Below, in pieces: positions 29,218 to 61,030 of a DNA stretch of 64,000 nt (its first letter is position 1; each line of letters opens with the position of its first letter). The translations under genes were made by a program, and so were the position numbers. This DNA is from Octopus vulgaris (lineage: Eukaryota): positions 7,812,001 through 7,876,000 of the forward strand of contig CATOCA020000001.1 in NCBI GenBank assembly GCA_951406725.2. Reading direction: 5' to 3'. A model generated the notes under the pieces. That model searched no databases. It saw only the letters and a list, made by a program, of their open reading frames with translations, and was not told the DNA's origin.

Positions 29218-29437
29218 AATTTTCTTGTTTTTACTTGTTTCAGTCATTTGACTGCGGGCATGTTGGAGCACCGCCTTTAATCGAGCAACTCGACCCCGGG
29301 ACTTATTCTTTGTGAGCCCAGTACTTATTCTATCGGTCTCTTTTGCCGAACCGCTAAGTGACAGGGACATAAACAACCAGCATCGGTTGTCAAGCAATGC
29401 TAGGGGAACAAACACAGACACACAAACACACACACAT

Positions 29438-29510
<73 letters not shown>

Positions 29511-29512
<2 letters not shown>

Positions 29513-30152
29513 AGTAAATATATGGCACAATGAAGTACCGATATTTACTGGAAATAGCGAACGTAATAATACGAGGCTAATGTATAGCTTCACCGCGTAT
29601 GTACTAGCAAAAATGCGTGTGTGCAACAAACTTGAAAACAATTGTCTTACCTCCAGGGAGAACATCTGAAAGATGAAATACCTAGAAAAGGATAATATGG
29701 GACCGGCGCCGGTTTCAGATTTTTCAAGATATGCCTGCCCACATATACTTGATCTATCTTCATCAGCCAAACATATACCACGACAACCTTTCAGATGTTA
29801 CCACATTAATGCCATTACACTCGACTGAAACGCCGAAACGCTAACAGCACGAGAACGGTGAAGAAGTTTCAATAAATTAGTAATGCAATACTAGAGTATT
29901 GCTTTCCAGTAAAGAATAGCCCGTGACGGGAAAATATACAAAGAAGTAAATATATGGCACAACGAAGTACCGATATTTACTGGAAATAGCGAACGTAATA
30001 ATACGACGCTAATGTATAGCTTCACCGCGTATGTACTAGCAAAAATGCGTGTGTGCAACAAACTAGAAAAAATTGTCTAACCTCCAGGGAGAAGATTTTT
30101 GCTATTACATACGCGGTGAAGCTATACATTAGCGTCGTATTATTACGTTCGC
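29511..30152 (-). mobile_element. Non-coding Penelope/retrozyme-like element: 432-bp monomer, partial direct repeat and short inverted end
   Basis: 29511-29662 recurs at 29943-30093; 30095-30152 is the reverse complement of 29989-30046; contains a hammerhead motif. Confidence 0.7.
29695..29772 (-). ncRNA. Type I hammerhead ribozyme, canonical core
   Basis: Minus strand: TTTGG-CTGATGA-[AGAT aga TCAAG t ATATG tgggcagg CATAT CTTGA aaa ATCT]-GAA-[ACCGGCGCCGGT]-C-CCATAT; GUC cleavage triplet, cut predicted after 29701. Confidence 0.8.
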
Positions 30153-31469
30153 CTAAAAGCTCCACGAGGCTCCGGCAGGGGGTGGTGGCGAGCCCTGTTG
30201 TACTCATTTGCCACAACTTTCTCTCACTCTCTCTTTCTGTTTCTTGGGTAACGTCCCGTCCTGCTGGGGTGGGGGTCACATACGCCACAGAAACCGGGAA
30301 ACCCGGTCCATGAGCCCGGCTAGGCTTGAAATGGGCGAATTTATTTTGTGGAGGCGCAATGGCCCAGTGGTTAGGGCAGCGGATTCGTGGTCGGAGGATC
30401 GCGGTTTCGATTCCCAGACCGGGCGTTGTGTGTGTTTATTGAGCGAAAACACCTAAAAGCTCCGCGAGGCTCCGGCAGGGGATTGTGGTGATCCCTGTTG
30501 TACTCTTTCACCACAACTTTCTCTCACTCTTACTTCCTGTTTCTGTTGTACCTGTATTTCAAAGGGCCGGCCTTGTCACTCTCTGTGTCACGCTGAATAT
30601 CCCCGAGAACTCCGTTAAGGGTGCACGTGTCTGTGGAGTGCTCAGCCACTTACACGTTAATTTCACGTGCAGGCTGTTCCGTTGATTCGGATCAACCGGA
30701 ACTCTCATCGTCGTAACCGACGGAGTGCTCCTGCAGGGGATTGTGGGGACCCCTGTTGAACTCTTTCACCACAACTTTCTCTCACTCTTACTTCCTGTTT
30801 CTGTTGTACCTGTATTTCAAAGGGCCGGCCTTGTCACTCTCTGTGTCACGCTGAATATCCCCGAGAACTACGTTAAGGGTGCACGTGTCTGTGGAGTGCT
30901 CAGCCACTTACACGGTAATTTCACGAGCAGGCTGTTCCGTTGATTCGGATCAACCGGAACCCTCGTCGTCGTAACCGACGGAGTGCTTCACTTGAGCGAA
31001 AACGCCTAAAAGCTCTACGAGACTCCGGCAGGGGTCGGTGGCGACCCCTGTTGTACTCATTTGTCACAACTTTTTCTCACTCTCTCTTTCTGTTTCTTGG
31101 GTAACGCTGAGGGGAGGGGGAACACATACGCCACAAAAACCGGGAAACCGGGCCCACGAGCCCGGCTAGGCTTGAAAAGGGCGAATTTATTTTGTGGAGG
31201 CGCAATGGCCCAGTGGTTAGGGCAGCGGACTCGTGGTCGGAGGATCGCGGTTTCGATTCCCAGACCGGGCGTTGTGTGTGTTTATTGAGCGAAAACACCT
31301 AAAAGCTCCACGAGGCTCCGGCAGGGGTCGCTGGCGACCCCTGTTGTACTCTTTCTTCTGTTGGCCTGCTCGCTTAGCCAGCGGGGTGGCGTCATTCGAA
31401 GGCTTAAACAATGCGAAGGGCATTGTGACCAGCGATGTGTAACAACATCTGATAGCCTGGTCGATCACG

Positions 31470-31504
<35 letters not shown>

Positions 31505-31790
31505 TGAGGCGCAATGGCCCAGTGGTTAGGGCAGCGGATTCGTGGTCGGAGGATCGCGGTTTCGATTCCCAGACCGGGCGTTGTGTGTGTTTATTGAGCG
31601 AAAACACCTAAAAGCTCCACGAGGCTCCGGCAGGGGTCGGTGGCGACCCCCTGTTCTACTTTTTCGCCCCAACTTTCTCTCATACTTTCTTCCTGTTTCT
31701 TGGGTAACGTAGAGGGTGGGGGAACACATACGCCCCAGAAACCGGGAAACCGGGCCCATGAGGGTTAGGGTTAGGCTAGGCTTGGAAAGG
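30153..31790 (+). mobile_element. Cluster of tRNA-derived SINE family C copies with different 3' modules
   Basis: Heads GAGGCGCAATGGCCCAGTGGTTAGGGCAGCGGA...GGTTTCGATTCC at ~30350, 31197 and 31506; shared AAAACACCTAAAAGCTCC body. Confidence 0.8.
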
Positions 31791-31974
31791 GCGCACAATA
31801 AAATCAGCAGCAATTGCTATAACAACAACAACAAATGCAAGAACAAGAATTAAGACGATGATAACAGCTTCAACAATAATAATTAAAATATTCATCACGG
31901 AAAGTGACAACGGAAGAGAGGACGAAAAAACATTGATTTTCCTTCCTTCTTTTACATATATTTTTTACTACCCA

Positions 31975-32620
31975 GCGTCCAATTACTCCCTCCACAACAC
32001 TAATCTCAAAAAGTCTTCTTGTGAACGTGACCTGGGTATTATTGTCGACAGAGCTTCGTGTTGGACAAAACACATCGCTAAAATTGTCAAGAAGGCTGAG
32101 GGTGTCTTGGCATCACTCACCAAGTCCTTTGTGAGCCGCTCTCCGACTATCTATCTGCGGCTTTATATAGCTATGGTAAGATCTCACCTGGAATTTGCAT
32201 CACCGGTCTGGAACCCCTTTCTTGCCCAGGATATCAATCGTCTGGAAGCCGTTCAGCGATGTGCAACCAAAAGAATAACCTCCATCAGGAATTTGCCATA
32301 TTCTGAACGCCTTACTTCCCTGGGCATGGATACATTGAAACTCCGACGTCTGGCAGCTGACGTGGCAGACACCCATAAAATTATTAACCATCTTACAAAC
32401 AATAACTCTGAGCACCTTTTCAAACTCCACCCATCTAACACCCGTGGTCATATTTAGAAAGTCAGAAAACAGCACAGCTCCCATGACTTCAGGAAACATT
32501 TTTTCACGCTGAGAGTTGCTGAAGCATGGAACAAACTGCCGGCATCAGTTGTTAGTTATCGGAGCACTGCATCCTTCAAAACTTCCATGCTTCCTGAGAT
32601 TCGCCAACACTACACCTGAT
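31975..32620 (+). mobile_element. 3' fragment of a CR1/L2-group LINE
   Basis: ERDLGIIVD, YIAMVRSHLEFASPVWNP, LEAVQRCATK, YSERL, LKLRRLAAD, NTRGH, HFFTLRVAEAWNKLP. Confidence 0.85.
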
Positions 32621-33230
32621 TTTGTCCCTTCCATACACACGCTGAAGCATGGAACAAACTGCCGGCATCAGTTGTTAGTTGTCGGAGCACTGCATCCTTC
32701 AAAACGTCCATGCTTCCTGAGATTCACCAACGCTACACTTCATTTTCTCCCATCCATACACACACAAGCATGGAACAAACTGCCGGCATCAGTTGTTAGT
32801 TGTCGGAGCACTGCATCCTTCAAAACTTCCATGCTTCCTGAGATTCACCAACGCTACACTTCATTTTCTCCCATCCATACACACACAAGCATGGAACAAA
32901 CTGCCGGCATCAGTTGTTAGTTGTCGGAGCACTGCATCCTTCAAAACTTCCATGCTTCCTGAGATTCGCCAACACTACACCTGATCTTCTCCCCTCCATA
33001 CACACGCTGAAGCATGGAACAAACTGCCGGTATCAGTTGTTAGTTGTCGGAGCACTGCATCCTTCAAAACGTCCATGCTTCCTGAGATTCGCCAACACTA
33101 CACCTGATCTTCTCCCCTCCATACACACACAAGCATGGAACAAACTGCCGGCATCAGTTGTTAGTTGTCGGAGCACTGCATCCTTCAAAACTTCCATGCT
33201 TCCTGAGATTCACCAACACTACACCTGATT
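32518..33230 (+). repeat. Six tandem ~122-bp copies of the LINE 3' terminal segment
   Basis: AAGCATGGAACAAACTGCCGGCATCAGTTGTTAG...CCATACACAC recurs at ~32520, 32643, 32766, 32887, 33010 and 33131. Confidence 0.9.
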
Positions 33231-33242
33231 TTCTCCATACCC

Positions 33243-33630
33243 CCTAGACGACGCCGTGGTGATCTCATTCTTGCTCACAACATCATAAGCGGAAAGTGTA
33301 ACCTCTCGAAAGAGCTGTTCTTCACTCCTGCTCCAGAGCGTAGGTTGCGGGGTCACTCCGAAAAGCTCTATCTGCGACGATCTCATCTCAGTCGAAGGAG
33401 AGGGTCTTTCTCCGTCCGGGTTGCGGATCCGTGGAACAAGCTTCCGGACGAGATGGTGAAGATGCTGACGACCGCTCGGTTCAAAGTCTTCCTTGACCAG
33501 AAATGGCCTGAACTCTTTACATGAACACCACCCTGTACATAACTCCATGTCCCCCCTACATGGCCTTGCTTTTTGCTTTTTGAGCCAAAAATGAACTAAC
33601 TAACTAACTAACTAATTAACTAACTAATTA
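33243..33630 (+). mobile_element. 3' fragment of a second CR1-type LINE with an (ACTA)n tail
   Basis: RRRRGDLILAHNIISG...RLRGHSEKL...FSVRVADPWNKLP...FKVFLD, followed by AACTAACTAACT repeats. Confidence 0.8.
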
Positions 33631-33874
33631 CTACTACTACTAGTTACAGCAACATGAGAAGCCCTAGGAACAACTACCACCAAGACAATACCACTGATAG
33701 TACCAGTACTGCAACCAATACAACAACAAACACTAACAAGATTCCCGGATTTACTGATTTGTTTTATTGTTAAGTAAAATGAATTTTTTTCTAATTCAAT
33801 AAAACAATTTTTTTACTAGGAAATGTTTTTTCTTGGTTTTTTTTTTACTTATTTCTGTGTAGCAATAAAGTACA

Positions 33875-34071
33875 TTACGGAGATGTACTTGCATAGCAAG
33901 TGACCTGATCTGAGATCGTGTGCTGGAACGAAAATAATTGCAGCGTGGAAGGTGTTTATAAGCGATTTAAGAAACACACAAAAACCGATAGATTCACTTC
34001 AACATTTAAATTGAATTTGTTAAAATATTTTCGTCGCTTTCCGACCGCGACCTGTTCACTGACAAAGCTTC

Positions 34072-34110
<39 letters not shown>

Positions 34111-34201
34111 TATATTACGGAGATGTACTTGCATAGCAAGTGACCTGATCTGATATCGTGTGCTGGAACGAAAACAATTTCAGCATGAAAGGTGTTTATA
34201 A

Positions 34202-34240
<39 letters not shown>

Positions 34241-34454
34241 GTATATATATATATACATATATATACATATATATACATATATATGTTACGGAGATGTACT
34301 TGCATAGCAAGTGACCTGATCTGATATCGTGTGCTGGAACGAAAACAATTTCAGCATGGAAGGTGTTTATAAGCCATTTAAGAAACACACAAAAACCGTT
34401 AGGTGTCCAAATATTTTCGTCGCTTTGAGACGGTGACCTGTTCACTGACAAAGC

Positions 34455-34548
<94 letters not shown>

Positions 34549-34765
34549 GTATATATATATATACATATATATACATATATATACATATATATATTACGGA
34601 GATGTACTTGCATAGCAAGTGACCTGATCTGATATCGTGTGCTGGAACGAAAACAATTTCAGCATGGAAGGTGTTTATAAGCCATTTAAGAAACACACAA
34701 AAACCGTTAGATGTCCAAATATTTTCGTCGCTTTGAGACGGTGACCTGTTCACTGACAAAGCTTC
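33875..34765 (-). repeat. Four units of a ~200-bp (TA)n-spaced repeat (family E) carrying a hammerhead-like motif; another unit at 38058-38228
   Basis: Unit TTACGGAGATGTACTTGCATAGCAAGTGACC...CCTGTTCACTGACAAAGCTTCA(TA)n; the second unit is truncated before the motif. Confidence 0.85.
34016..34066 (-). ncRNA. Minimal type I hammerhead-like motif, G3-C8 core variant (best-preserved family E copy)
   Basis: Minus strand: TTTGTCA-GTGAACA-g-[GTCGC ggtcggaaa GCGAC]-GAAA-ATAT-T-T-TAACAAA; stem I 6/7 paired, palindromic ATAT loop III, one extra G after A9. Confidence 0.6.
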
Positions 34766-34852
<87 letters not shown>

Positions 34853-34853
<1 letters not shown>

Positions 34854-37800
34854 GATTTTGATTTTGATTTTGATTTTTCCAGTTTCAGCTAATGAGCTGT
34901 GGCCATTATGGGGCACCGCCATTTGGTTTGCTACACGGGTTTACCTCACGGATGCTTTTTAGCAAACGTCATCTGATGCATGAGAGAGTTCGATGCAGCT
35001 GCCCTCATCTGCACCTCCTGCCGTGAAGTTGGTTCATCCGGGACACCTGACAGGAAGAGATCCAGTCCTACTTTAAAGACATCCGCATCTACACCATGCA
35101 GGTCCCTCAGGTTCTTCGGGAGGACATTGAAGAGCCGTGGGCCTCTGAAGCCCAGGCTATCACAATATCTTGTCCTACATCTTGATGGCAAATTTGGAGT
35201 CCTTGGTACTACGCAGTGGCGTCCGGTTCTGGCGTTTGTGTGACTCTCGATGCCAAAGTCTGGGACAAGACCTTCCAGGATCTTCCAGATATATATTATG
35301 GCATATCTTTCTCGCCTACGCTCCAGGGAATAGAGCTTTAATCTCTTGAGTCTCTCCCAGTAGCTCGTATGCTGCACAGAGGCTATCTTCTTCGTGTAGC
35401 TTCGTTGGATCGCCTCAAGTTCTGTGATCAACTTGACACTGGATGGTGACCATAGCTGAGAGCAATAGTCAAAGTGGCTTAGGACAAGTGTCTTCCAGAG
35501 GACCATCATGGTTTCTTGTTCTCTTGTTCTAAAGGTTCTAAGAATCCATCCAGCCAGCCGTCTGCATTTTATTGTCAGTTTAGCAACATGTACATGAAAG
35601 GTCGCGTCATCACTCATGTGAATACCCAGGTCACGCACTGATTGTGCCTCTGGGATTGCAATCCCTCCGGGTCCAGTGTATTCATTAGGTATTGCATTCA
35701 GTTTTGCATGCTGATAGTATAAAGCTGGAAACTTTTCAGCATTGAACTGCATGCTATTCTTTTCAGCCCACTTGTATATTTCGTCCAGCTCACATTGCAG
35801 GTGCTTAGTGTCTTCAGGGTTCTGTATTGCCTGTGAAACTTTTGTATCATCTGCATAACTTGTGATCGTGGCTCTCCGCGTGGCTGAGGGCATGTCTGAG
35901 AGGGCCATTATGAACAGTAGTGGTCCCAAAACAGTGCCCTGTGGAACACCGCTCACTATTTGCGTGCTAATGGAAGTGGCCCCATTGGCTGCTACCACCT
36001 GACTTCTATTCTTCAGAAAGTCATGTAGCCATTCTCCTAGTTTTCCAACTATGCCAAGATCACGCAGTTTGTGACATATCATTCCATGATCGACTTTATC
36101 GAAGGCCTTTGCGAAGTCGAGATATATGACTTCCACATTTGAGTGGTTGAGCAGTTGTTTCAGCACCCAGTCATAGTGCTGCAGGAGCTGAGTTAAGCAG
36201 CTTCTTCCTGGTCGGAAACCATGTTGGGTGTCAGGCAGCAAGTCATTTTCTTCAAGGAAGGTGATTAGTTTCCTTCTGACTATTCGTTCCATGACCTTGC
36301 TGATGTGTGAGGTCAGAGAGATAGGTCTGTAGTTCTTGGCCTCCGCTCTGCTACCTCCTTTATGAATAGGGCATATTTTACCTTCCTTCAGTTTTCTTGG
36401 AAGTTTGCCAGCTGCAAGGAAGCTCTGAATGAGGAACTGCAGTGGTCTTGCTAGGACTCTCTTACATACTTTTAGGAGGATTGCCGGGAATCCATCGGGG
36501 CCAATAGCTGAGTCTGTTTTCATTTCATCTATAGCCTTTATTACATCGTCTTCCTTTATATCGATGTAATTTATCGTCGCCGCCTCTGATTCTATATCTG
36601 CAGTGGTAAAGAAGTCAATTGGATTGCTGATTTGGAAATGCCCAAGGGGTGGGGTGAAAACACTCTTGAATTGTTCATTCAGTATTTCACTTACCCTCAT
36701 TGGTTTTCCTGTGAGTGTGCCATCCTTTTCAAGGAGTGGCCCTATCCTACAGTGCACTGTAGCTGTTTCTTTGGCATACCTGTAGAAAGCTCTGGGGTTA
36801 GTTTTTATGTTGTCTGTAGCCCAGGCTTCTTTGTCTGCTCTCTCCTTCTCATGGGAGAGTTGCAGACAATTTTCAATTTCTAACAGTTTTATTTTCAGGC
36901 GGGACTTTTCACTGCTTTCAATTTGTTTGTTTAGGCGATTTGAAATTTTTGTACGCCGTCTCATTAAAATTTTCCTCTCTCTGGGGATTTTGTTCTTGTG
37001 TACAGCTCTACCATGTTGTGATCCGAGAGTAGTGTCGGTGTCACTTTCACATTATGGATGAGATCCATATTATTTGTGAAGCAGAGATCCAGTGTGTTAC
37101 CTGCTCTGGTTGGTTGGAGTATTACTTGCTCCATGTACAGGGTGTTGATGAGGTTCAGGAGGGACCTCGCCTGTCCTCGTTCACATCTTGTCATTCCTGG
37201 GAGAGAAAGGCCCTCGGGCCATCTGACATTGGGTAGATTGAAGTCTCCCAAGAGAAGTACACTTATGTGTTGTTCTAATGTGATTAGAACTTCTTCTATT
37301 TTTAAAAGGCAGTCCTCAAACTTGCCCATATGACTTGGGGCATCTGGAGGGCGTATGTAGCACACACAATTACATCAAGTTGCCTGATGTGTACAATTAG
37401 TGTGTCACACACCGAGTTTGAGTATGACAAAATGACCTGGGGTGTGAGGTCCCCACGGATGTACGTAGCAACTCCTCCATGACTCCTTTCTTTCCTGTCG
37501 GTCCGTAGTACAACATACTGTGGTATGTGTAGTTCCGCATCTGCTATGTCCGGTTTCAGATGCGTTTCTGTGAGTGCTATGCATAAGGCTTGATTGCATG
37601 CGACAAAGTCTCTCAGGAACGGGACTTTTGTCCTGTTACTGTGTGTTAGTAGTCCTCTGATGTTCAGTAGGAGCATCGAGGTGAGGTGTATGCTGTTGCC
37701 GGTGGTGTCCACCCTGGGTCCATCTGCTGTGGCGGTCTTGTGAACTGTGGGCAGTTCCATCTGCGAGCCTGAGCCTGATGGAGCCAGGTTAGCTGATGTA

Positions 37801-37903
37801 CAATCTTTTGTGCCATGCACAAAAAAGATTCCTGCTCAGCAGCTGCCCTTTCAACAATACGTTGGTGGTTTGTGGTACGCACCACATCTGCGTACCTCCG
37901 TTT
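34853..37903 (-). mobile_element. CR1-group LINE, 5'-truncated and internally deleted
   Basis: End of ORF1 (37664-37885), EN (LNIRGL, LTETHL, LGDFN, LDLCF, SDH) with a frameshift near 37360, EN-RT linker missing, open RT; (AAAATC)n tail at 34853-34878. Confidence 0.9.
34946..36964 (-). CDS. Reverse transcriptase part of LINE ORF2 (open, 672 aa)
   Basis: NYRPISLTS, YLDFAKAFDKVDH, GVPQGTVLGP, YADD, LERRRERY. Confidence 0.88.
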   Translation of the reverse strand: MRRRTKISNRLNKQIESSEKSRLKIKLLEIENCLQLSHEKERADKEAWATDNIKTNPRAFYRYAKETATVHCRIGPLLEKDGTLTGKPMRVSEILNEQFKSVFTPPLGHFQISNPIDFFTTADIESEAATINYIDIKEDDVIKAIDEMKTDSAIGPDGFPAILLKVCKRVLARPLQFLIQSFLAAGKLPRKLKEGKICPIHKGGSRAEAKNYRPISLTSHISKVMERIVRRKLITFLEENDLLPDTQHGFRPGRSCLTQLLQHYDWVLKQLLNHSNVEVIYLDFAKAFDKVDHGMICHKLRDLGIVGKLGEWLHDFLKNRSQVVAANGATSISTQIVSGVPQGTVLGPLLFIMALSDMPSATRRATITSYADDTKVSQAIQNPEDTKHLQCELDEIYKWAEKNSMQFNAEKFPALYYQHAKLNAIPNEYTGPGGIAIPEAQSVRDLGIHMSDDATFHVHVAKLTIKCRRLAGWILRTFRTREQETMMVLWKTLVLSHFDYCSQLWSPSSVKLITELEAIQRSYTKKIASVQHTSYWERLKRLKLYSLERRRERYAIIYIWKILEGLVPDFGIESHTNARTGRHCVVPRTPNLPSRCRTRYCDSLGFRGPRLFNVLPKNLRDLHGVDADVFKVGLDLFLSGVPDEPTSRQEVQMRAAASNSLMHQMTFAKKHP

Positions 37904-37969
37904 TATATATATGTATATATTTATATATTTATATGTATATATTTATATATACATATATTTATATATATG

Positions 37970-38012
<43 letters not shown>

Positions 38013-38225
38013 GTATATATATATACATATATATACATATATATACATATATATATATTACGGAGATGTACTTGCATAGCAAGTGACCTGATCTGATATC
38101 GTGTGCTGGAACGAAAACAATTTCAGCATGGAAGGTGTTTATAAGCCATTTAAGAAACACACAAAAATCGTTAGATCTCCAAATATTTTCGTCGCTTTGA
38201 GACGGTGACCTGTTCACTGACAAAG

Positions 38226-38269
<44 letters not shown>

Positions 38270-38324
38270 GAAATATTAAAATTAATAAGTCTCTCTAAAA
38301 GAGAACAACGGCAGCGATCCCGGA

Positions 38325-38762
38325 AAATAATAGATATCGCCATACTAATATGGCATTCTTATAAAAATAAGAATAAAGCTGTCCGCTTATTAGCTCCATG
38401 AGGCCATCGCCTTAAGTTAGCTATTTGATACACAAACTGTATCCATATAACCTTCGAACAAGGGAGGTCAGTCGCTCCACACTACTTGACCGGCAGCTAC
38501 AGACGCGTTTCGGGGTATTGCCCCTTTTCAATGCAGTATAGCCAGACCAGTAGGTGTCGCTTCTGACAATCTCTGTTCGAAGGTTTTATTTACCTAGCTT
38601 CGGTCAAGTAGTGTGGAGCGACTGACCTCCCTTGTTCGAAGGTTATATGGATACAGTTTGTGTATCAAATAGCTAACTTAAGGCGATGGCCTCATGGAGC
38701 TAATAAGCGGACAGCTTTATTCTTATTTTTATAAGAATGCCATATTAGTATGGCGATAACTA

Positions 38763-38768
<6 letters not shown>
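38325..38768. mobile_element. Fold-back element: 168-bp inverted repeats around a 108-bp spacer that contains a hammerhead
   Basis: 38325-38492 is the reverse complement of 38601-38768 with one mismatch seen; set in (TA)n. Confidence 0.85.
38490..38545 (-). ncRNA. Minimal type I hammerhead ribozyme, U3-A8 core variant
   Basis: Minus strand: CTGGC tata CTGCA-TTGAAAA-[GGGG caata CCCC]-GAAA-CGCG-T-C-TGTAG ct GCCGG; palindromic CGCG loop III; cut predicted after 38502. Confidence 0.75.
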
Positions 38769-38796
<28 letters not shown>

Positions 38797-38800
<4 letters not shown>

Positions 38801-40143
38801 ACGAGGGGGACCTCCGAAAACTGTACGGAATCCCTCAGACAGGCCCGACTCGATCAGCGAATATTCCCGCCACGGAAACTCGTCGGGGAGAGGAGAGGAG
38901 AGAGACACAACCGCAGCAAGGCAACCGAGACACAGAGATACAACCGGAGAGAGACACCAAAAGAGGCAAGGCAACAACTGGCAACACTGGCTTACATTCA
39001 ACAACTAGTTTATATGACAATCAATGGTTACAACATCAAAGCATTTAAGGCAAACAACAAATCAATACATCATACGGGTATACCACAGATCAAAGCATTT
39101 AACAACATGCATGTAACAATATAACAGTCCGGAGACACAAGTCATATACAGTATTTCAAAGGTACACGTTACGTCACAGTCCAATCAGAACCCTATAATC
39201 GATACATTATACAATGTTCGTATCACAACAATTCACGTTACAGTTCAAAGTTCATTATCGTCTACATCAGAGTCCTTCTTTTTCTCTCTTCTTTTCTCTT
39301 TCTTTTCTTTTACATCGTAACACGTATCAATACAATTAAATACCCTAATTCCTAATTGAATCGCCAGCGTCCCATTATTGCACCTCCATCTCTCCGTACC
39401 GCTAAATCCAGCCTGCCAAACTCCTGCATCCCATCGCTCGCTCCCAAGATTCTCTGACGACCGACTCCCACTGCCCAAAACCTCACTTCCTTGTCCTGAC
39501 TTCCACTCCCTCATCTCCCTCTGTCTCTACCGCTTATAGCCTTTCTATCTGCTCTCTGATTCCTTACTCTATCTCTATCGCCTGCTGCCTATCACCCTCT
39601 CATTACAGCTCTACCATACTCTCTGCCTGTCCTTCTCTGCCCCCTCATCCTCTCTCACTGCTAATTCTTCCTCACATCTGTCCCTTAGCCTTATACTCTA
39701 TCTCTCTCACTACTTTTCATCTCTCTGCCCCTCATCCTCTCTTACTGCCAATACCCTCTCTATCTGCTCTAAGATTCCTTACTCTATCTCTATCGCCTGC
39801 TGCCTATCACCCTCTCATGACAGCTCTACCATACTCTCTGCCTGTCCTTCTCTGCCCCCTCATCCTCTTTCACTGCTAATTCTTCCTCACATCTGTCCCT
39901 TAGCCTTATACTCTATCTCTCTCACTACTTTTCTTCTCTCTGCCCCTCATCCTCTCTTACTGCCAATACCCTCTCTATCTGCTATAAGATTCCTTACTCT
40001 ATCTCTATCGTCTGCTGCCTATCACCCTCTCATGACAGCTCTACCATACTCTCTGCCTGTCCTTCTCTTCAAGGGGTGTTTAGAACGACCTCTAATTCAC
40101 CCGAAAGGGGTCGCAGAACCGATCAATCCACCTGAATCTGACA
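38797..40143 (-). mobile_element. Probable solo LTR (~1.35 kb) with an internal ~215-bp tandem repeat (39545-40068)
   Basis: Bounded by TGTTA...TGACA (TG..CA); non-coding; no target-site duplication, PBS or PPT found. Confidence 0.45.
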
Positions 40144-40149
40144 GGACAA

Positions 40150-40329
40150 AGTAGGTCGCCGTTTGAAAGCGACGAAAAGATTTGAACAAATTCAATTGAA
40201 ATGTTGAAGTGAATCTAACGGTTTTGTGTGTTTCTTAAATCGCTTATAAACACCTTCCACGCTGCAATTGTTTTCGTTCCAGCACACGATCTCAGATCAA
40301 GTCACTTGCTATGCAAGTACATCTCCGTA

Positions 40330-40362
<33 letters not shown>

Positions 40363-40565
40363 TACATATGAAGCTTTGTCAGTGAACAGGTCACGGTCGG
40401 AAAGTGAGGAAAAGATTTGAACAAATTCAATTGAAATGTTGAAGTGAATCTAACGGTTTTTGTGTGTTTCTTAAATCGCTTATAAACACCTTCCACGCTG
40501 CAATTGTTTTCGTTCCAGCACACGATCTCAGATCAAGTCACTTGCTATGCAAGTACATCTCCGTA

Positions 40566-40598
<33 letters not shown>

Positions 40599-41039
40599 TA
40601 TGAAGCTTTGTCAGTGAACAGGTCACGGTCGGAAAGTGAGGAAAAGATTTGAACAAATTCAATTGAAATGTTGCAGTGAATCTATCGGTTTTGGTGTGTT
40701 TCTTAAATCGCTTATAAACACCTTCCACGCTGCAATTGTTTTCGTTCCAGCACACGATCTCAGATCAAGTCACTTGCTATGCAAGTACATCTCCGTAATA
40801 TATATATATTTATATATATGTATATATATATATAGATACATATGAAGCTTTGTCAGTGAACAGGTCACGGTCGGAAAGTGAGGAAAAGATTTGAACAAAT
40901 TCAATTGAAATGTCGAAGTGAATCTAACGGTTTTTGTGTGTTTCTTAAATCGCTTATAAACACCTTCCACGCTGCAATTATTTTCGTTCCAGCACACGAT
41001 CTCAGATCAAGTCACTTGCTATGCAAGTACATCTCCGTA

Positions 41040-41091
<52 letters not shown>

Positions 41092-41287
41092 GAAGCTTTG
41101 TCAGTGAACAGGTTACGGTCGGAAAGTGAGGAAAAGATTTGAACAAATTCAATTGAAATGTCGAAGTGAATCTAACGGTTTTTGTGTGTTTCTTAAATCG
41201 CTTATAAACACCTTCCACGCTGCAATTGTTTTCGTTCCAGCACACGATCTCAGATCAAGTCACTTGCTATGCAAGTACATCTCCGTA

Positions 41288-41318
<31 letters not shown>

Positions 41319-41519
41319 CATATGAAGCTTTGTCAGTGAACAGGTCACGGTCGGAAAGTGAGGAAAAGATTTGAACAAATTCAATTGAAATGTTGAAGTG
41401 AATCTAACGGTTTTTGTGTGTTTCTTAAATCGCTTATAAACACCTTCCACGCTGCAATTGTTTTCGTTCCAGCACATGATCTCAGATCAAGTCACTTGCT
41501 ATGCAAGTACATCTCCGTA

Positions 41520-41550
<31 letters not shown>

Positions 41551-41753
41551 TACATATGAAGCTTTGTCAGTGAACAGGTCACGGTCGGAAAGTGAGGAAA
41601 AGATTTGAACAAATTCAATTGAAATGTTGCAGTGAATCTATCGGTTTTTGTGTGTTTCTTAAATCGCTTATAAACACCTTCCACGCTGCAATTGTTTTCG
41701 TTCCAGCCCACGATCTCAGATCAAGTCACTTGCTATGCAAGTACATCTCCGTA

Positions 41754-41803
<50 letters not shown>

Positions 41804-41999
41804 GAAGCTTTGTCAGTGAACAGGTTACGGTCGGAAAGTGAGGAAAAGATTTGAACAAATTCAATTGAAATGTTGAAGTGAATCTAACGGTTTTTGTGTG
41901 TTTCTTAAATCGCTTATAAACACCTTCCACGCTGCAATTGTTTTCGTTCCAGCACACGATCTCAGATCAAGTCACTTGCTATGCAAGTACATCTCCGTA

Positions 42000-42032
<33 letters not shown>

Positions 42033-42231
42033 CATATGAAGCTTTGTCAGTGAACAGGTCACGGTCGGAAAGTGAGGAAAAGATTTGAACAAATTCAATT
42101 GAAATGTCGAAGTGAATCTATCGGTTTTTGTGTGTTTCTTAAATCGCTTATAAACACCTTCCACGCTGCAATTGTTTTCGTTCCAGCACACGATCTCAGA
42201 TCAAGTCACTTGCTATGCAAGTACATCTCCG

Positions 42232-42281
<50 letters not shown>

Positions 42282-42477
42282 GAAGCTTTGTCAGTGAACA
42301 GGTCACGGTCGGAAAGTGAGGAAAAGATTTGAACAAATTCAATTGAAATGTTGAAGTGAATCTAACGGTTTTTGTGTGTTTCTTAAATCGCTTATAAACA
42401 CCTTCCACGCTGCAATTGTTTTCGTTCCAGCACACGATCTCAGATCAAGTCACTTGCTATGCAAGTACATCTCCGTA

Positions 42478-42508
<31 letters not shown>

Positions 42509-42709
42509 TACATATGAAGCTTTGTCAGTGAACAGGTCACGGTCGGAAAGTGAGGAAAAGATTTGAACAAATTCAATTGAAATGTTGCAGTGAATCTATC
42601 GGTTTTGGTGTGTTTCTTAAATCGCTTATAAACACCTTCCACGCTGCAATTGTTTTCGTTCCAGCCCACGATCTCAGATCAAGTCACTTGCTATGCAAGT
42701 ACATCTCCG

Positions 42710-42759
<50 letters not shown>

Positions 42760-42955
42760 GAAGCTTTGTCAGTGAACAGGTTACGGTCGGAAAGTGAGGA
42801 AAAGATTTGAACAAATTCAATTGAAATGTTGAAGTGAATCTAACGGTTTTTGTGTGTTTCTTAAATCGCTTATAAACACCTTCCACGCTGCAATTGTTTT
42901 CGTTCCAGCACACGATCTCAGATCAAGTCACTTGCTATGCAAGTACATCTCCGTA

Positions 42956-42988
<33 letters not shown>

Positions 42989-43431
42989 CATATGAAGCTT
43001 TGTCAGTGAACAGGTCACGGTCGGAAAGTGAGGAAAAGATTTGAACAAATTCAATTGAAATGTCGCAGTGAATCTATCGGTTTTTGTGTGTTTCTTAAAT
43101 CGCTTATAAACACCTTCCACGCTGCAATTGTTTTCGTTCCAGCACACGATCTCAGATCAAGTCACTTGCTATGCAAGTACATCTCCGTAATATATATATA
43201 TTTATATATATGTATATATATATATAGATACATATGAAGCTTTGTCAGTGAACAGGTCACGGTCGGAAAGTGAGGAAAAGATTTGAACAAATTCAATTGA
43301 AATGTCGAAGTGAATCTAACGGTTTTTGTGTGTTTCTTAAATCGCTTATAAACACCTTCCACGCTGCAATTATTTTCGTTCCAGCACACGATCTCAGATC
43401 AAGTCACTTGCTATGCAAGTACATCTCCGTA

Positions 43432-43464
<33 letters not shown>

Positions 43465-43590
43465 TATGAAGCTTTGTCAGTGAACAGGTCACGGTCGGAA
43501 AGTGACGAAAAGATTTGAACAAATTAAAATGAAATGTTGAAGTGAATCTAACGGTTTTTGTGGGTTTTTTTTAAATCGCTTATAAAATAT
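40150..43590 (+). repeat. Tandem array of family E, 15 units (13 complete) of 232-248 bp, opposite orientation to 33875-38228
   Basis: CATATGAAGCTTTGTCAGTGAACAGG recurs 14 times from ~40365 to ~43463; length variation lies in the (TA)n spacer. Confidence 0.95.
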
Positions 43591-43666
43591 AGTACATATG
43601 TTGTGTAATGTCTGTAGTACATAGTTTATGATGTATTTAGTATTTCCAAACAAGAATATTATTGAC

Positions 43667-43709
<43 letters not shown>

Positions 43710-43713
<4 letters not shown>

Positions 43714-44135
43714 GTTTGTATGTCTGTTTATCCCCCCAACACCGCTTGACAACCGGTGCTGGTGTGTTCATGTCCCCGTAACTTAGCGTTTCGTCAAAAG
43801 AGAAAATAGATTAAATACTAGGCCTACAAAAAATAAGTATTGGGTTCGAATTTCGCGAATAAAGGCGCTGCTGCGGCATGGAATATATATATATATATGT
43901 ATATATATATACATATATATATATGTGTGTGTGTGTGTGTTTGTAATGTCTGTTTATTTCTCGAACATCGTTGGACAACGGGTGCTGGTGTGTACGATTC
44001 CCCGAACTTAGCGGTTCGGGAAAAGGGACCGATAGTTTAAATACTAGGCCTACAAAGTATAAGTCCTGGGGTCGATTTGCACGAATAAAGGCATTGCTCC
44101 ACCATGGCCGCAGTCAAATAATTGAAAAATTAAGT
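43710..44135 (+). mobile_element. Two diverged 3' bodies of SINE family A
   Basis: GCTTGACAACCGGTGCTGGTGTG...GGCCGCAGTCAAATAATTGAAA. Confidence 0.7.
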
Positions 44136-59930: not shown

Positions 59931-59994
59931 GGATTCATTATTTATTTGTCCTCATTTTGTTTGTTGTTCTCATTCCTAAGGTATTTTTCGATGT

Positions 59995-60056
59995 TATTAT
60001 TATTATTAAGGTCATTGCCTGGATTCGAACTCGGAATCTTGGGGTTAGTAGCCTGT
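59995..60056 (-). mobile_element. Truncated short tRNA-like SINE with (AAT)n tail
   Basis: Minus strand GGCTACTAACCCCAAGATTCCGAGTTCGAATCCAGGCAATGACCTT(AAT)n; same family as 61042-61220. Confidence 0.6.
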
Positions 60057-60059
60057 GGG

Positions 60060-61030
60060 CAATTATGGAGTGAATTTTATGGGTTATAAACCTAATATTT
60101 CCCTATCCTTCCTTAATACCGGTTCCCATATGCTGCTCATATCTGCACTCGGTCTGCTTAGGAGGATGTTGTGTCTTTGCATATGTGCTGCTTCTTTTAG
60201 TTTTCCTATTTTCCAGTGGTGTTCTCTGTCTATTATTTTAACTTCATCCCACCCGGATGAGGTGGTCTCCATTTTTCCATACATGATCACCTATACCCGT
60301 TTTATCAATATCTCCTCGTGTCACAGCTTTGCGATGTGCGTCTACCCTTATTTTGAGTGGGAGGCATGTTTCGCCTTTGTATAACCTACCACAGCTGCAT
60401 GGGATGGAGTACACGCAGTCTTTGGTCATATTCTCTTCTATTGGTGGTTTAACTCGAAGGAAATATTTGCGAAGTGTTGTATTACTCTTGAATGCTGTCC
60501 TGATGTCATATGGGCCGCATATCTTTTGTATCTTTTCGGAGAAGCCTTTCACATAGGGTAGACAGACTGTGGACAGTTTATTGGTTTCATCCTCTCTTTT
60601 CTTCATAATTAGAGTGGATTGTATATTTTGGGGTAGTTGTTACTTAATAGATTGTTACTTAGCTTGATCATTTCTTCGTTGTGGGTATCACAATCGCTAC
60701 TTATATTCTTTACTCGATGTTTTAGGCACTGAGCAATCCCTCTCTTTACACTGTATGGATTGTAGGAATTGAAGTTGAGGTATCGTCCGGTGAAGGTCGG
60801 CTTGTAGTATACGGATGTGCTGAATCCATACTTGGTGCATGTTATTAATACGTCCAGGAATGCCAGCTGATTGTATTTCTCCTTTTCCATTGTGAACTGT
60901 ATGGATGGCTTTATTGAGTTCACATGATATAACAGCACTTGAGCATATTCCTGGTGGGGCCAGACTATAAACGTGTCATCAACATATCGTAGCCATAGGG
61001 TTGGTTTTAGTGGTGTTGATACTAAGATTC
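60060..61030 (-). mobile_element. Penelope-like element fragment: RT C-terminus plus GIY-YIG endonuclease, frameshifted
   Basis: WLRYVDDTFIVWP, NSIKPSIQFTMEKE, LAFLDVLI, VYYKPTFTGRYLNFNS, LPYVKGFSEKI, CVYSIPCSCGRLYKGET, RVDAH, KLKEAAHM. Confidence 0.85.

Follow-up and report, generated by a model that had tools for sequence, protein, structure and literature searches.

Analysis of a 64,000-nt stretch of the Octopus vulgaris genome (contig CATOCA020000001.1, positions 7,812,001 to 7,876,000; hereafter the window) revealed three families of small repeats, each carrying a type I hammerhead fold and named here, after the letters at core positions 3 and 8, C3-G8, U3-A8, and G3-C8. The sequence data make it probable that all three belong to Penelope-type elements and encode ribozymes predicted to cut themselves slowly, likely as dimers or with the help of a protein. 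The G3-C8 hammerhead would lie in the pseudo-long terminal repeat (pLTR) of an element encoding a reverse transcriptase (RT) and a GIY-YIG endonuclease (EN), the U3-A8 and C3-G8 hammerheads in non-coding monomers, which likely borrow such an RT.

The three cores reported by the initial annotation were confirmed at their positions, all on the minus strand: CTGATGA at 29760-29766, TTGAAAA at 38525-38531, and GTGAACA at 34053-34059. As it had stated, each is followed in order by helix II, GAAA, a palindrome, the H site, and stem I, and a descriptor found the 3-8 pair to be of Watson-Crick type in all three families (C-G, U-A, and G-C). This pair holds the general-acid nucleotide of the hammerhead in place. 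A search restricted to CUGANGA would indeed miss the U3-A8 and G3-C8 motifs, and the three units are mutually unrelated in sequence (best E 0.64 by blastn comparison). The C3-G8 fold (29698..29769, minus strand, core 29766-29760) combines a long interrupted helix II with a 3-bp stem I and a 12-nt palindrome (29713-29702), cleavage being predicted after its H site, C17, at 29701. The U3-A8 fold (38497..38536, minus strand, core 38531-38525) is minimal, with a 4-bp helix II, a 5-bp stem I, a 6-nt palindrome (38508-38503), and a predicted cut after the H site C17 at 38502. The likewise minimal G3-C8 fold (34016..34066, minus strand, core 34059-34053) has an extra G at 9.1, a 5-bp helix II, a 6-nt palindrome (34029-34024), and U17 at 34023 as H site. 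Its closing stem I was only partly borne out: it is broken after 1 bp in the window copy, which has one mismatch to the 7-bp family stem, and it forms a perfect 7-bp stem in dispersed genomic copies. In family-type copies, helices I and II close the junction with 7+5 (G3-C8), 5+4 (U3-A8), and 3+4 bp (C3-G8); this closure is broken in the window's G3-C8 copies. The G3-C8 family has both G10.1-C11.1 and an extra nucleotide after position 9, the U3-A8 motif has G10.1-C11.1 and no clear extra base, and the C3-G8 motif has A10.1-U11.1 and no extra base. The first box is a literal CUGANGA or the published UUGANAA in two families and GUGAACA in the G3-C8 family.

A strict descriptor, admitting any Watson-Crick 3-8 pair and a palindrome of at least 6 nt, returned from the window the three sites above and three further G3-C8 copies without stem I. 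Three window sites had a stem I of at least 1 bp compared with a shuffle mean of 0.06, and two had one of at least 3 bp compared with 0.015 (200 shuffles). The observed fold score was reached by none of 20,000 dinucleotide shuffles for each of the three family units. Together with the position of the G3-C8 motif in a pLTR just ahead of an open reading frame (ORF) and the existence of sister motifs and two-sided changes, this makes it extremely improbable that the motifs matched by chance and owe their numbers to the amplification of repeats. Such an origin would be in line with each family representing one event, with relaxed descriptors matching randomly (9 sites with non-Watson-Crick 3-8 states vs 4.6 in shuffles of the 1-Mb sample below), and with the lack of an Rfam hammerhead among the matches listed for the window (150 of 224) and, at gathering score, in five loci.

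The genome searched comprises 2.8 Gb in 227 contigs and is rich in microsatellites and retroelements. Initial candidates numbered 1,179 for G3-C8, 1,674 for U3-A8, and 596 for C3-G8, and exact patterns matched 6,323 times for G3-C8 (20 nt) and 780 times for U3-A8 (34 nt). About 30 top-scoring loci of each of the U3-A8 and C3-G8 families as well as chance copies were examined. Loci recurring on the window's own contig were excluded from family counts. The region 29400-44000 of the window recurs several times on its contig (C31) in both orientations, by segmental duplication or assembly redundancy. Application of the descriptor for any Watson-Crick 3-8 pair, as suggested in the initial annotation, to a 1-Mb sample of 100 evenly spaced 10-kb stretches gave 15 C-G, five U-A, two G-C, and no A-U sites, with shuffle means of 0.2, 0.7, 0.2, and 0.4, respectively. 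Three of the five U-A sites and both G-C sites belong to the window's families. This excess indicates that the genome holds many minimal hammerhead families, and the presence of three within 14 kb is therefore not itself remarkable. A candidate fourth core version, A3-U8, was rejected: its four hits belong to one family and are best explained as an offset register of a C3-G8 motif, all copies of which have CTGATGA.

The G3-C8 repeat had been regarded as a non-autonomous family. Instead, it proved to be the ~208-nt pLTR of an ORF-bearing Penelope-like element (PLE) with RT and GIY-YIG. Dispersed copies combine their 7-bp stem I with the extra G, a 5-bp helix II, and the 6-nt palindrome. Six longer copies, walked upstream, pass through an intron-like stretch and a microsatellite-rich untranslated region (UTR) into a GIY-YIG frame (E 9.7e-05), which is preceded by a CX3CxxC linker (L258, L270) and a YVDD-bearing frame. 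We take the latter to be RT on the basis of its motifs, this part having given no match in Pfam or PDB. The intron-like stretch shows GT, a branch-point motif, a pyrimidine tract, and AG 23 nt before the core, and the predicted spliced junction had no exact genomic match. Just 5' of the motif (L008, L010, L221-L250), its ends are near reverse complements over 11 nt. The link of the pLTR copies to the ORF is read from L332, L344, and L345, in which the repeat runs straight into the ORF, the start codon belonging to the repeat and lying 57 nt beyond the predicted cut. Long YVDD-bearing open frames persist in a young subfamily (893 residues in L340, 707 in L341, and 692 in L345), and its core, where the motif is in view (L345, L346, L352), is G3-C8. 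The G3-C8 motif is the only hammerhead candidate in the scanned pieces of the element, which has both hammerhead and ORF start in the pLTR, inverted truncated arms, and a tail. The CX2-5CxxC linker and the TA preference point to a Neptune/Nematis-like element.

The ends of G3-C8 copies are ordered. Two clusters stand out among the 162 distinct 3' ends: measured from the core, 58 ends lie between +120 and +129 and another 78 between +175 and +189, which places the clusters ~30 and ~90 nt into the ORF. Of the 75 copies that extend to the 5' boundary, 26 read on into the intron-like sequence, 22 abut an inverted arm, and the other 27 are solitary. Among these lone short copies, 15 of 27 end in AG; in 10 of the 15, the next base is G, at a position occupied by C in the intact element. 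After removing two duplicate intron-bearing rows and two rows with a G otherwise explained, the extra G precedes AG in 8 of 11. A cap, when copied, characteristically leaves an untemplated G. From this extra G, we infer that many short copies may be cDNAs of the mRNA's own capped 5' end. Solo short copies showing it are L273, L276, L282, L285, L300, L305, L319, and L020. Separately, long intron-keeping copies with a G3-G8 core cluster on contig C16 (L226, L228, L231, L236, L240, L244, L255, L265), which also hosts 23 of the 40 intron-start matches.

Regarding the origin of the G3-C8 core, C3-G8 is the core pair of two sister motifs (L323 and L037), which closely resemble the G3-C8 motif in spacing, stem I, and helix II. 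Across the three, 24 of 54 columns are invariant, and the L037 motif lies ~500 nt behind an endonuclease 44-49% identical to that of the G3-C8 element. The extra nucleotide 9.1, G10.1-C11.1, and the palindrome of the G3-C8 motif match the metazoan PLE consensus of PMC4209133. Within the family, exact core matches comprise 6,323 G3-C8 out of 6,560, with 220 G3-G8, 17 C3-C8, and no C3-G8. G3-C8 probably arose from C3-G8 through two compensating changes. A survey of 81 G3-C8 copies not selected by core pattern, with recurrent non-CpG variants scored per column, found such variants in 5/9 columns of loop II and 0/10 of helix II (p=0.011), in 1/14 of stem I, where a wobble pair is kept, in 0/4 of the palindrome, and in 1/11 of the core.

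The U3-A8 and C3-G8 families do look non-autonomous, as initially proposed, consisting of non-coding head-to-tail monomers of 363 and 432 nt with GC contents of 41 and 38%, under the 45% bound for retrozymes; the 432 nt are slightly over the ~170-400 nt retrozyme range. We mapped 55 U3-A8 and 41 C3-G8 segments on the repeated monomers, of which 25 and 11 are longer than one unit. In these segments, the 3' end of the monomer is joined directly to its start, i.e., they are circularly permuted, and same-strand exact U3-A8 matches lie 360-365 apart. The 3' ends occupy two sites per family, +267 (17) and +204 (11) for U3-A8, and +264 (18) and +326 (7) for C3-G8, inverted pairs often using one site per arm. 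The 5' ends are scattered, with no position above 2. When folded as circles, both monomers outperform shuffled sequences by far (z -6.8 for U3-A8 and -5.9 for C3-G8), and dimer models pair the palindromes of both. U3-A8 relatives in L285 and L185 (77-79%) have the palindrome and one helix II pair changed on both sides and U-A or U-G at 3-8. In 10 U3-type motifs, 93% of cells pair and 8/12 pairs change on both sides, the rows having been chosen by motif pattern and five coming from families without similarity outside the motif. For C3-G8, a two-sided palindrome variant occurs in 3/38 rows. The U3-A8 unit is also present in contigs of four other organisms, mostly at 90-99% identity, and one contig wraps round the unit; these contigs are too similar for covariation, and circle and genomic tandem look alike there.

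That last ambiguity bears on a rather unlikely alternative, by which the 363- and 432-nt units are pLTR tandems of unsampled autonomous parents or were copied from linear multimers without a circular stage. A genomic tandem and a circle give an identical junction, and the loci examined are the limited set described above. Speaking for a circular, non-autonomous origin are the mapped junctions, with 25 and 11 segments exceeding one unit, the circle folds, and the genomic surroundings: none of 51 U3-A8 and 38 C3-G8 descriptor hits lies within 2.5 kb behind either EN query, and no ORF-bearing parent of the monomers was found in the ~1.9 Mb examined. In addition, other families surfaced among the loci. 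These include no fewer than two additional U3-A8 families, of which one shows a U3-G8 variant as well as three distinct palindromes of 8 nt (L113:700-761, L247, L222, L018:1811-1868, L197), and C3-G8 families with 8-nt palindromes and very long helix II inserts of 45-95 nt (L124, L079, L100, L125, L187, L215). A very abundant minimal hammerhead family (L038 and ~45 other hits) is variable in its helix II loops, and many of its copies carry C at position 4 of the core or changes at positions 6-7.

Several observations weigh against the reading of the three motifs as self-cutting hammerheads of Penelope-type elements. The only recurrent variant of the G3-C8 core, G3-G8, matches 220 times on many contigs. 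The two sister motifs are single decayed copies with a non-palindromic helix III, one of them with A9 changed. A better preservation of core and helices than of flanks, which the initial annotation had made a check, came out weakly in the G3-C8 family (recurrent variants in 2/39 structured vs 13/71 unstructured non-coding columns, p=0.08), and raw difference rates do not differ (0.053 in the core, 0.052 in the flank), which is expected for decaying copies. Double changes in helix II are not enriched within the family (one double and seven single of 95), and the G3-C8 dimer model failed to form helix III. Most loci were picked by similarity, so that the sample leans to young copies. With regard to the monomers, the 5' ends of copies do not pile up at the predicted cut sites, the active C3-G8 monomer fold lies 3.2 kcal/mol above the predicted lowest-energy misfold, and neither monomer shares sequence with the Neptune-like element.

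The count of 220 G3-G8 matches, compared with 17 C3-C8 and no C3-G8, indicates that a lineage with a broken 3-8 pair spread, and this subfamily suggests that the pair is dispensable for spreading. It also supports a less favored explanation, which we consider unlikely on balance: the G3-C8 motif descends from a hammerhead but has itself ceased to cut, its fold being kept in a 5' UTR or promoter function or by hitch-hiking, with cleavage unneeded. The 13-fold excess of G3-G8 over the C3-C8 background would fit this, as would the weak, AU-only palindrome, the copies lacking core bases next to ORFs (L354-L358), and the in vitro insertion of hammerhead mutants (PMC11167929). However, G3-C8 makes up the bulk of the exact matches and is also the form of the young ORF-intact subfamily, both letters differ from the sister motifs with the pair kept, and an engineered double mutant was partly active (PMC11167929); these points speak against the explanation. 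In L354-L358, the core minus three bases stands directly ahead of an internally shortened ORF, an arrangement duplicated several times.

The initial annotation had put forward the PLE at 60-61 kb as a possible mobilizer of the three families. This decayed copy (59943..61028, minus strand) belongs to a different PLE family, in which no Zn-finger linker was seen and which carries a minimal C3-G8 hammerhead of its own, lost from the window copy and kept in others. The family is abundant (3,632 candidates; present in 15/100 sampled stretches). Abundance and a hammerhead of its own would suit a common driver of three non-autonomous families; nevertheless, this is very unlikely and is refuted for the G3-C8 family, which has its own RT/EN, the two RTs being ~27% identical over short stretches. 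The two 3' ends of the 60-61 kb family lie ~28 nt apart (modes +94 and +122), and 0/9 end in TA runs, with the marker possibly stopping short of the true end. The corresponding spacing is ~59 nt for G3-C8, ~63 nt for U3-A8, and ~62 nt for C3-G8, and TA runs follow 39/84, 29/41, and 19/28 of their ends, respectively. End spacing and target preference thus speak against the 60-61 kb family as mobilizer, with which there is also no common sequence. A Neptune-like protein is the better candidate for mobilizing the U3-A8 and C3-G8 monomers.

Based on these data, the following course can be proposed for the Penelope-type elements. Transcription from the pLTR would give an RNA with the hammerhead, whose G3-C8 core would have arisen from C3-G8 by paired compensatory changes, immediately before the start codon. 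(TA)n DNA would be nicked by the element's protein, which would begin reverse transcription at two positions within the ORF, ~30 and ~90 nt from its start. Starts on the transcript's own 5' copy may have given rise to the thousands of ~208-nt solo repeats, and starts on a downstream copy to the longer, intron-keeping ones. For the two monomers, the template would be RNA in circular or multimeric form, copied by this protein or by a Neptune-like relative of it, and cleavage is likely unnecessary for insertion. A bolder combination appears possible to us, at somewhat below even chances: a working G3-C8 hammerhead became fixed in a young Neptune-like element with an intact ORF, the ~60-nt two-start RT signature marks the U3-A8 and C3-G8 circles as parasites of this element, and the short copies are cDNAs of its own mRNA's capped 5' end.

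Within the window, the C3-G8 family is represented by ~1.36 head-to-tail units of the 432-nt non-coding monomer (29510..30096, minus strand; blastn and end mapping), whose 3' end at 29510 adjoins (TA)n(GA)n, and by an inverted 5'-truncated arm (30095..30152, plus strand; blastn). The U3-A8 family contributes 340 nt of its 363-nt non-coding monomer (38265..38604, minus strand), with the 3' end in (TA)n, and an inverted 5'-truncated arm ending at the second fixed 3' site (38601..38768, plus strand). Around the G3-C8 fold at 34.0 kb lies one ~200-nt pLTR copy of the Neptune/Nematis-like PLE with a mutated ORF start codon (33875..34071, minus strand). It is followed by three more pieces split by (TA)n, namely a 3' fragment and two internally deleted copies whose helix II and stem I are damaged (34114..34761, minus strand), and by a deleted, damaged copy (38057..38225, minus strand) beyond an inserted RT-bearing long interspersed nuclear element (LINE). 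On the plus strand, 15 G3-C8 units separated by (TA)n follow one another in tandem at 40153..43586, with a period of 232-248. The core is retained in 14 of the 15 units, all with broken palindrome and stem I, and 13 also lack G10.1-C11.1; the repetition of one damaged version with (TA)n spacers suggests that the array is likely a DNA-level amplification of one decayed copy. All 18 core-bearing G3-C8 copies of the window are damaged in stem I, 17 also in helix II or the palindrome, and three copies are internally deleted: in the window, the family survives as decayed relics. Apart from these families, the LINE-like element (Pfam RVT_1; 34946-37835, minus strand) interrupts the run of G3-C8 copies, and an insertion starting TG with pyrimidine-rich tandem repeats occupies 38790-40070, between the U3-A8 element and the array. 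Short telomere-like TTAGGG pieces occur at repeat inversion or insertion junctions (L017 and window 31760-31775).

Two covariant cores had been highlighted as escaping CUGANGA-only searches. U3-A8 in PLE hammerheads is already published (PMC4209133, PMC3088659), which leaves natural G3-C8 as the only candidate novelty. One large census reportedly counts ~150,000 PLE-linked variants and may list G3-C8. No natural G3-C8 was found in print in a coverage lying outside figures, that census (Lunse et al. 2017), Przybilski and Hammann 2007, and one supplement of PMC4209133; the core was found only as engineered mutants (PMC3884650, PMC11167929, PMC8495972). What appears new is the natural, high-copy G3-C8 core of a predicted ribozyme with its C3-G8 sisters and G3-G8 offshoot, as well as the spacing of 3' ends as a putative signature that ties the two retrozyme-like families to a Neptune-like driver. 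Minimal hammerheads, U3-A8, retrozymes, and partial tandems are mostly expected from the literature. The thousands of natural G3-C8 copies, the G3-G8 sub-lineage, and the C3-G8 sisters provide a ready series for asking how much cleavage a PLE needs, and the ~60-nt distance between 3' ends, common to the three families, is a simple genomic criterion for pairing a non-autonomous retrozyme with its driver. If the reading holds, hammerhead censuses fixing C3 and G8 miss whole retroelement families, and retrozymes can be assigned to driver elements by end spacing.

In comparison with known systems, the word "ribozyme" occurs zero times in the main text of a recent octopus repeat annotation. Natural 3-8 covariation to U3-A8 was described by Perreault et al. 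2011 (PMC3088659), whose section 8 text, figure 5 aside, does not name G3-C8. Minimal type I hammerheads in metazoan PLE pLTRs, acting as dimers and with low activity, were reported by Cervera and de la Pena 2014 (PMC4209133), including ~1,300 U3-A8 cores in Schistosoma. The octopus families resemble these in their short or palindromic helix III, predicted dimer action, U3-A8 cores, and opposite-strand pairs; the G3-C8 family additionally shares the extra nucleotide after position 9 with G10.1-C11.1 and the pLTR site beside an intron-like 3' splice site. They differ in the G3-C8 core, absent from the text and alignment rows of that paper covered here, where no cephalopod appears either (octopus has zero hits in the supplement part covered), and in the long interrupted helix II and A10.1-U11.1 of the C3-G8 window motif.

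Metazoan non-LTR retrozymes, among them mussel monomers of 350-390 bp, have been proposed as PLE derivatives (PMC7229834; Li et al. 2026, 10.64898/2026.07.22.740005). The U3-A8 and C3-G8 units share with them a tandem arrangement of non-coding monomers that are poor in GC, extensively self-paired, and equipped with a type I hammerhead. In contrast, retrozymes mostly carry canonical hammerheads with loop-loop contacts, whereas the U3-A8 motif is minimal and the C3-G8 motif has a long helix II; the C3-G8 monomer is longer at 432 nt.

The Poseidon element PAc of Anolis (Frangieh et al. 2024, PMC11167929) has two internal RT starts inside its ORF, which define the tail, and a protein-assisted hammerhead; it inserts without cleavage, with uncleaved RNA as template, and the engineered C3G/G8C mutant partly rescues activity (also PMC8495972). 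The octopus G3-C8 element shares with PAc the hammerhead at the pLTR-ORF junction, the two end sites in the ORF, and AT-rich targets. Unlike in PAc, where it was engineered, G3-C8 is the natural majority form in the octopus element, which is further distinguished by its CX3CxxC linker, ~60-nt end spacing, and start codon 57 nt past the predicted cut. Finally, relative to the Neptune and Nematis EN+ PLEs described by Craig et al. 2021 (PMC8557442), the octopus tail of ~60 nt exceeds the 30-40 bp described; RT, CX2-5CxxC linker, and C-terminal GIY-YIG are shared with them, as are partial tandems, inverted 5'-truncated arms, a tail, and the (TA)n bias.

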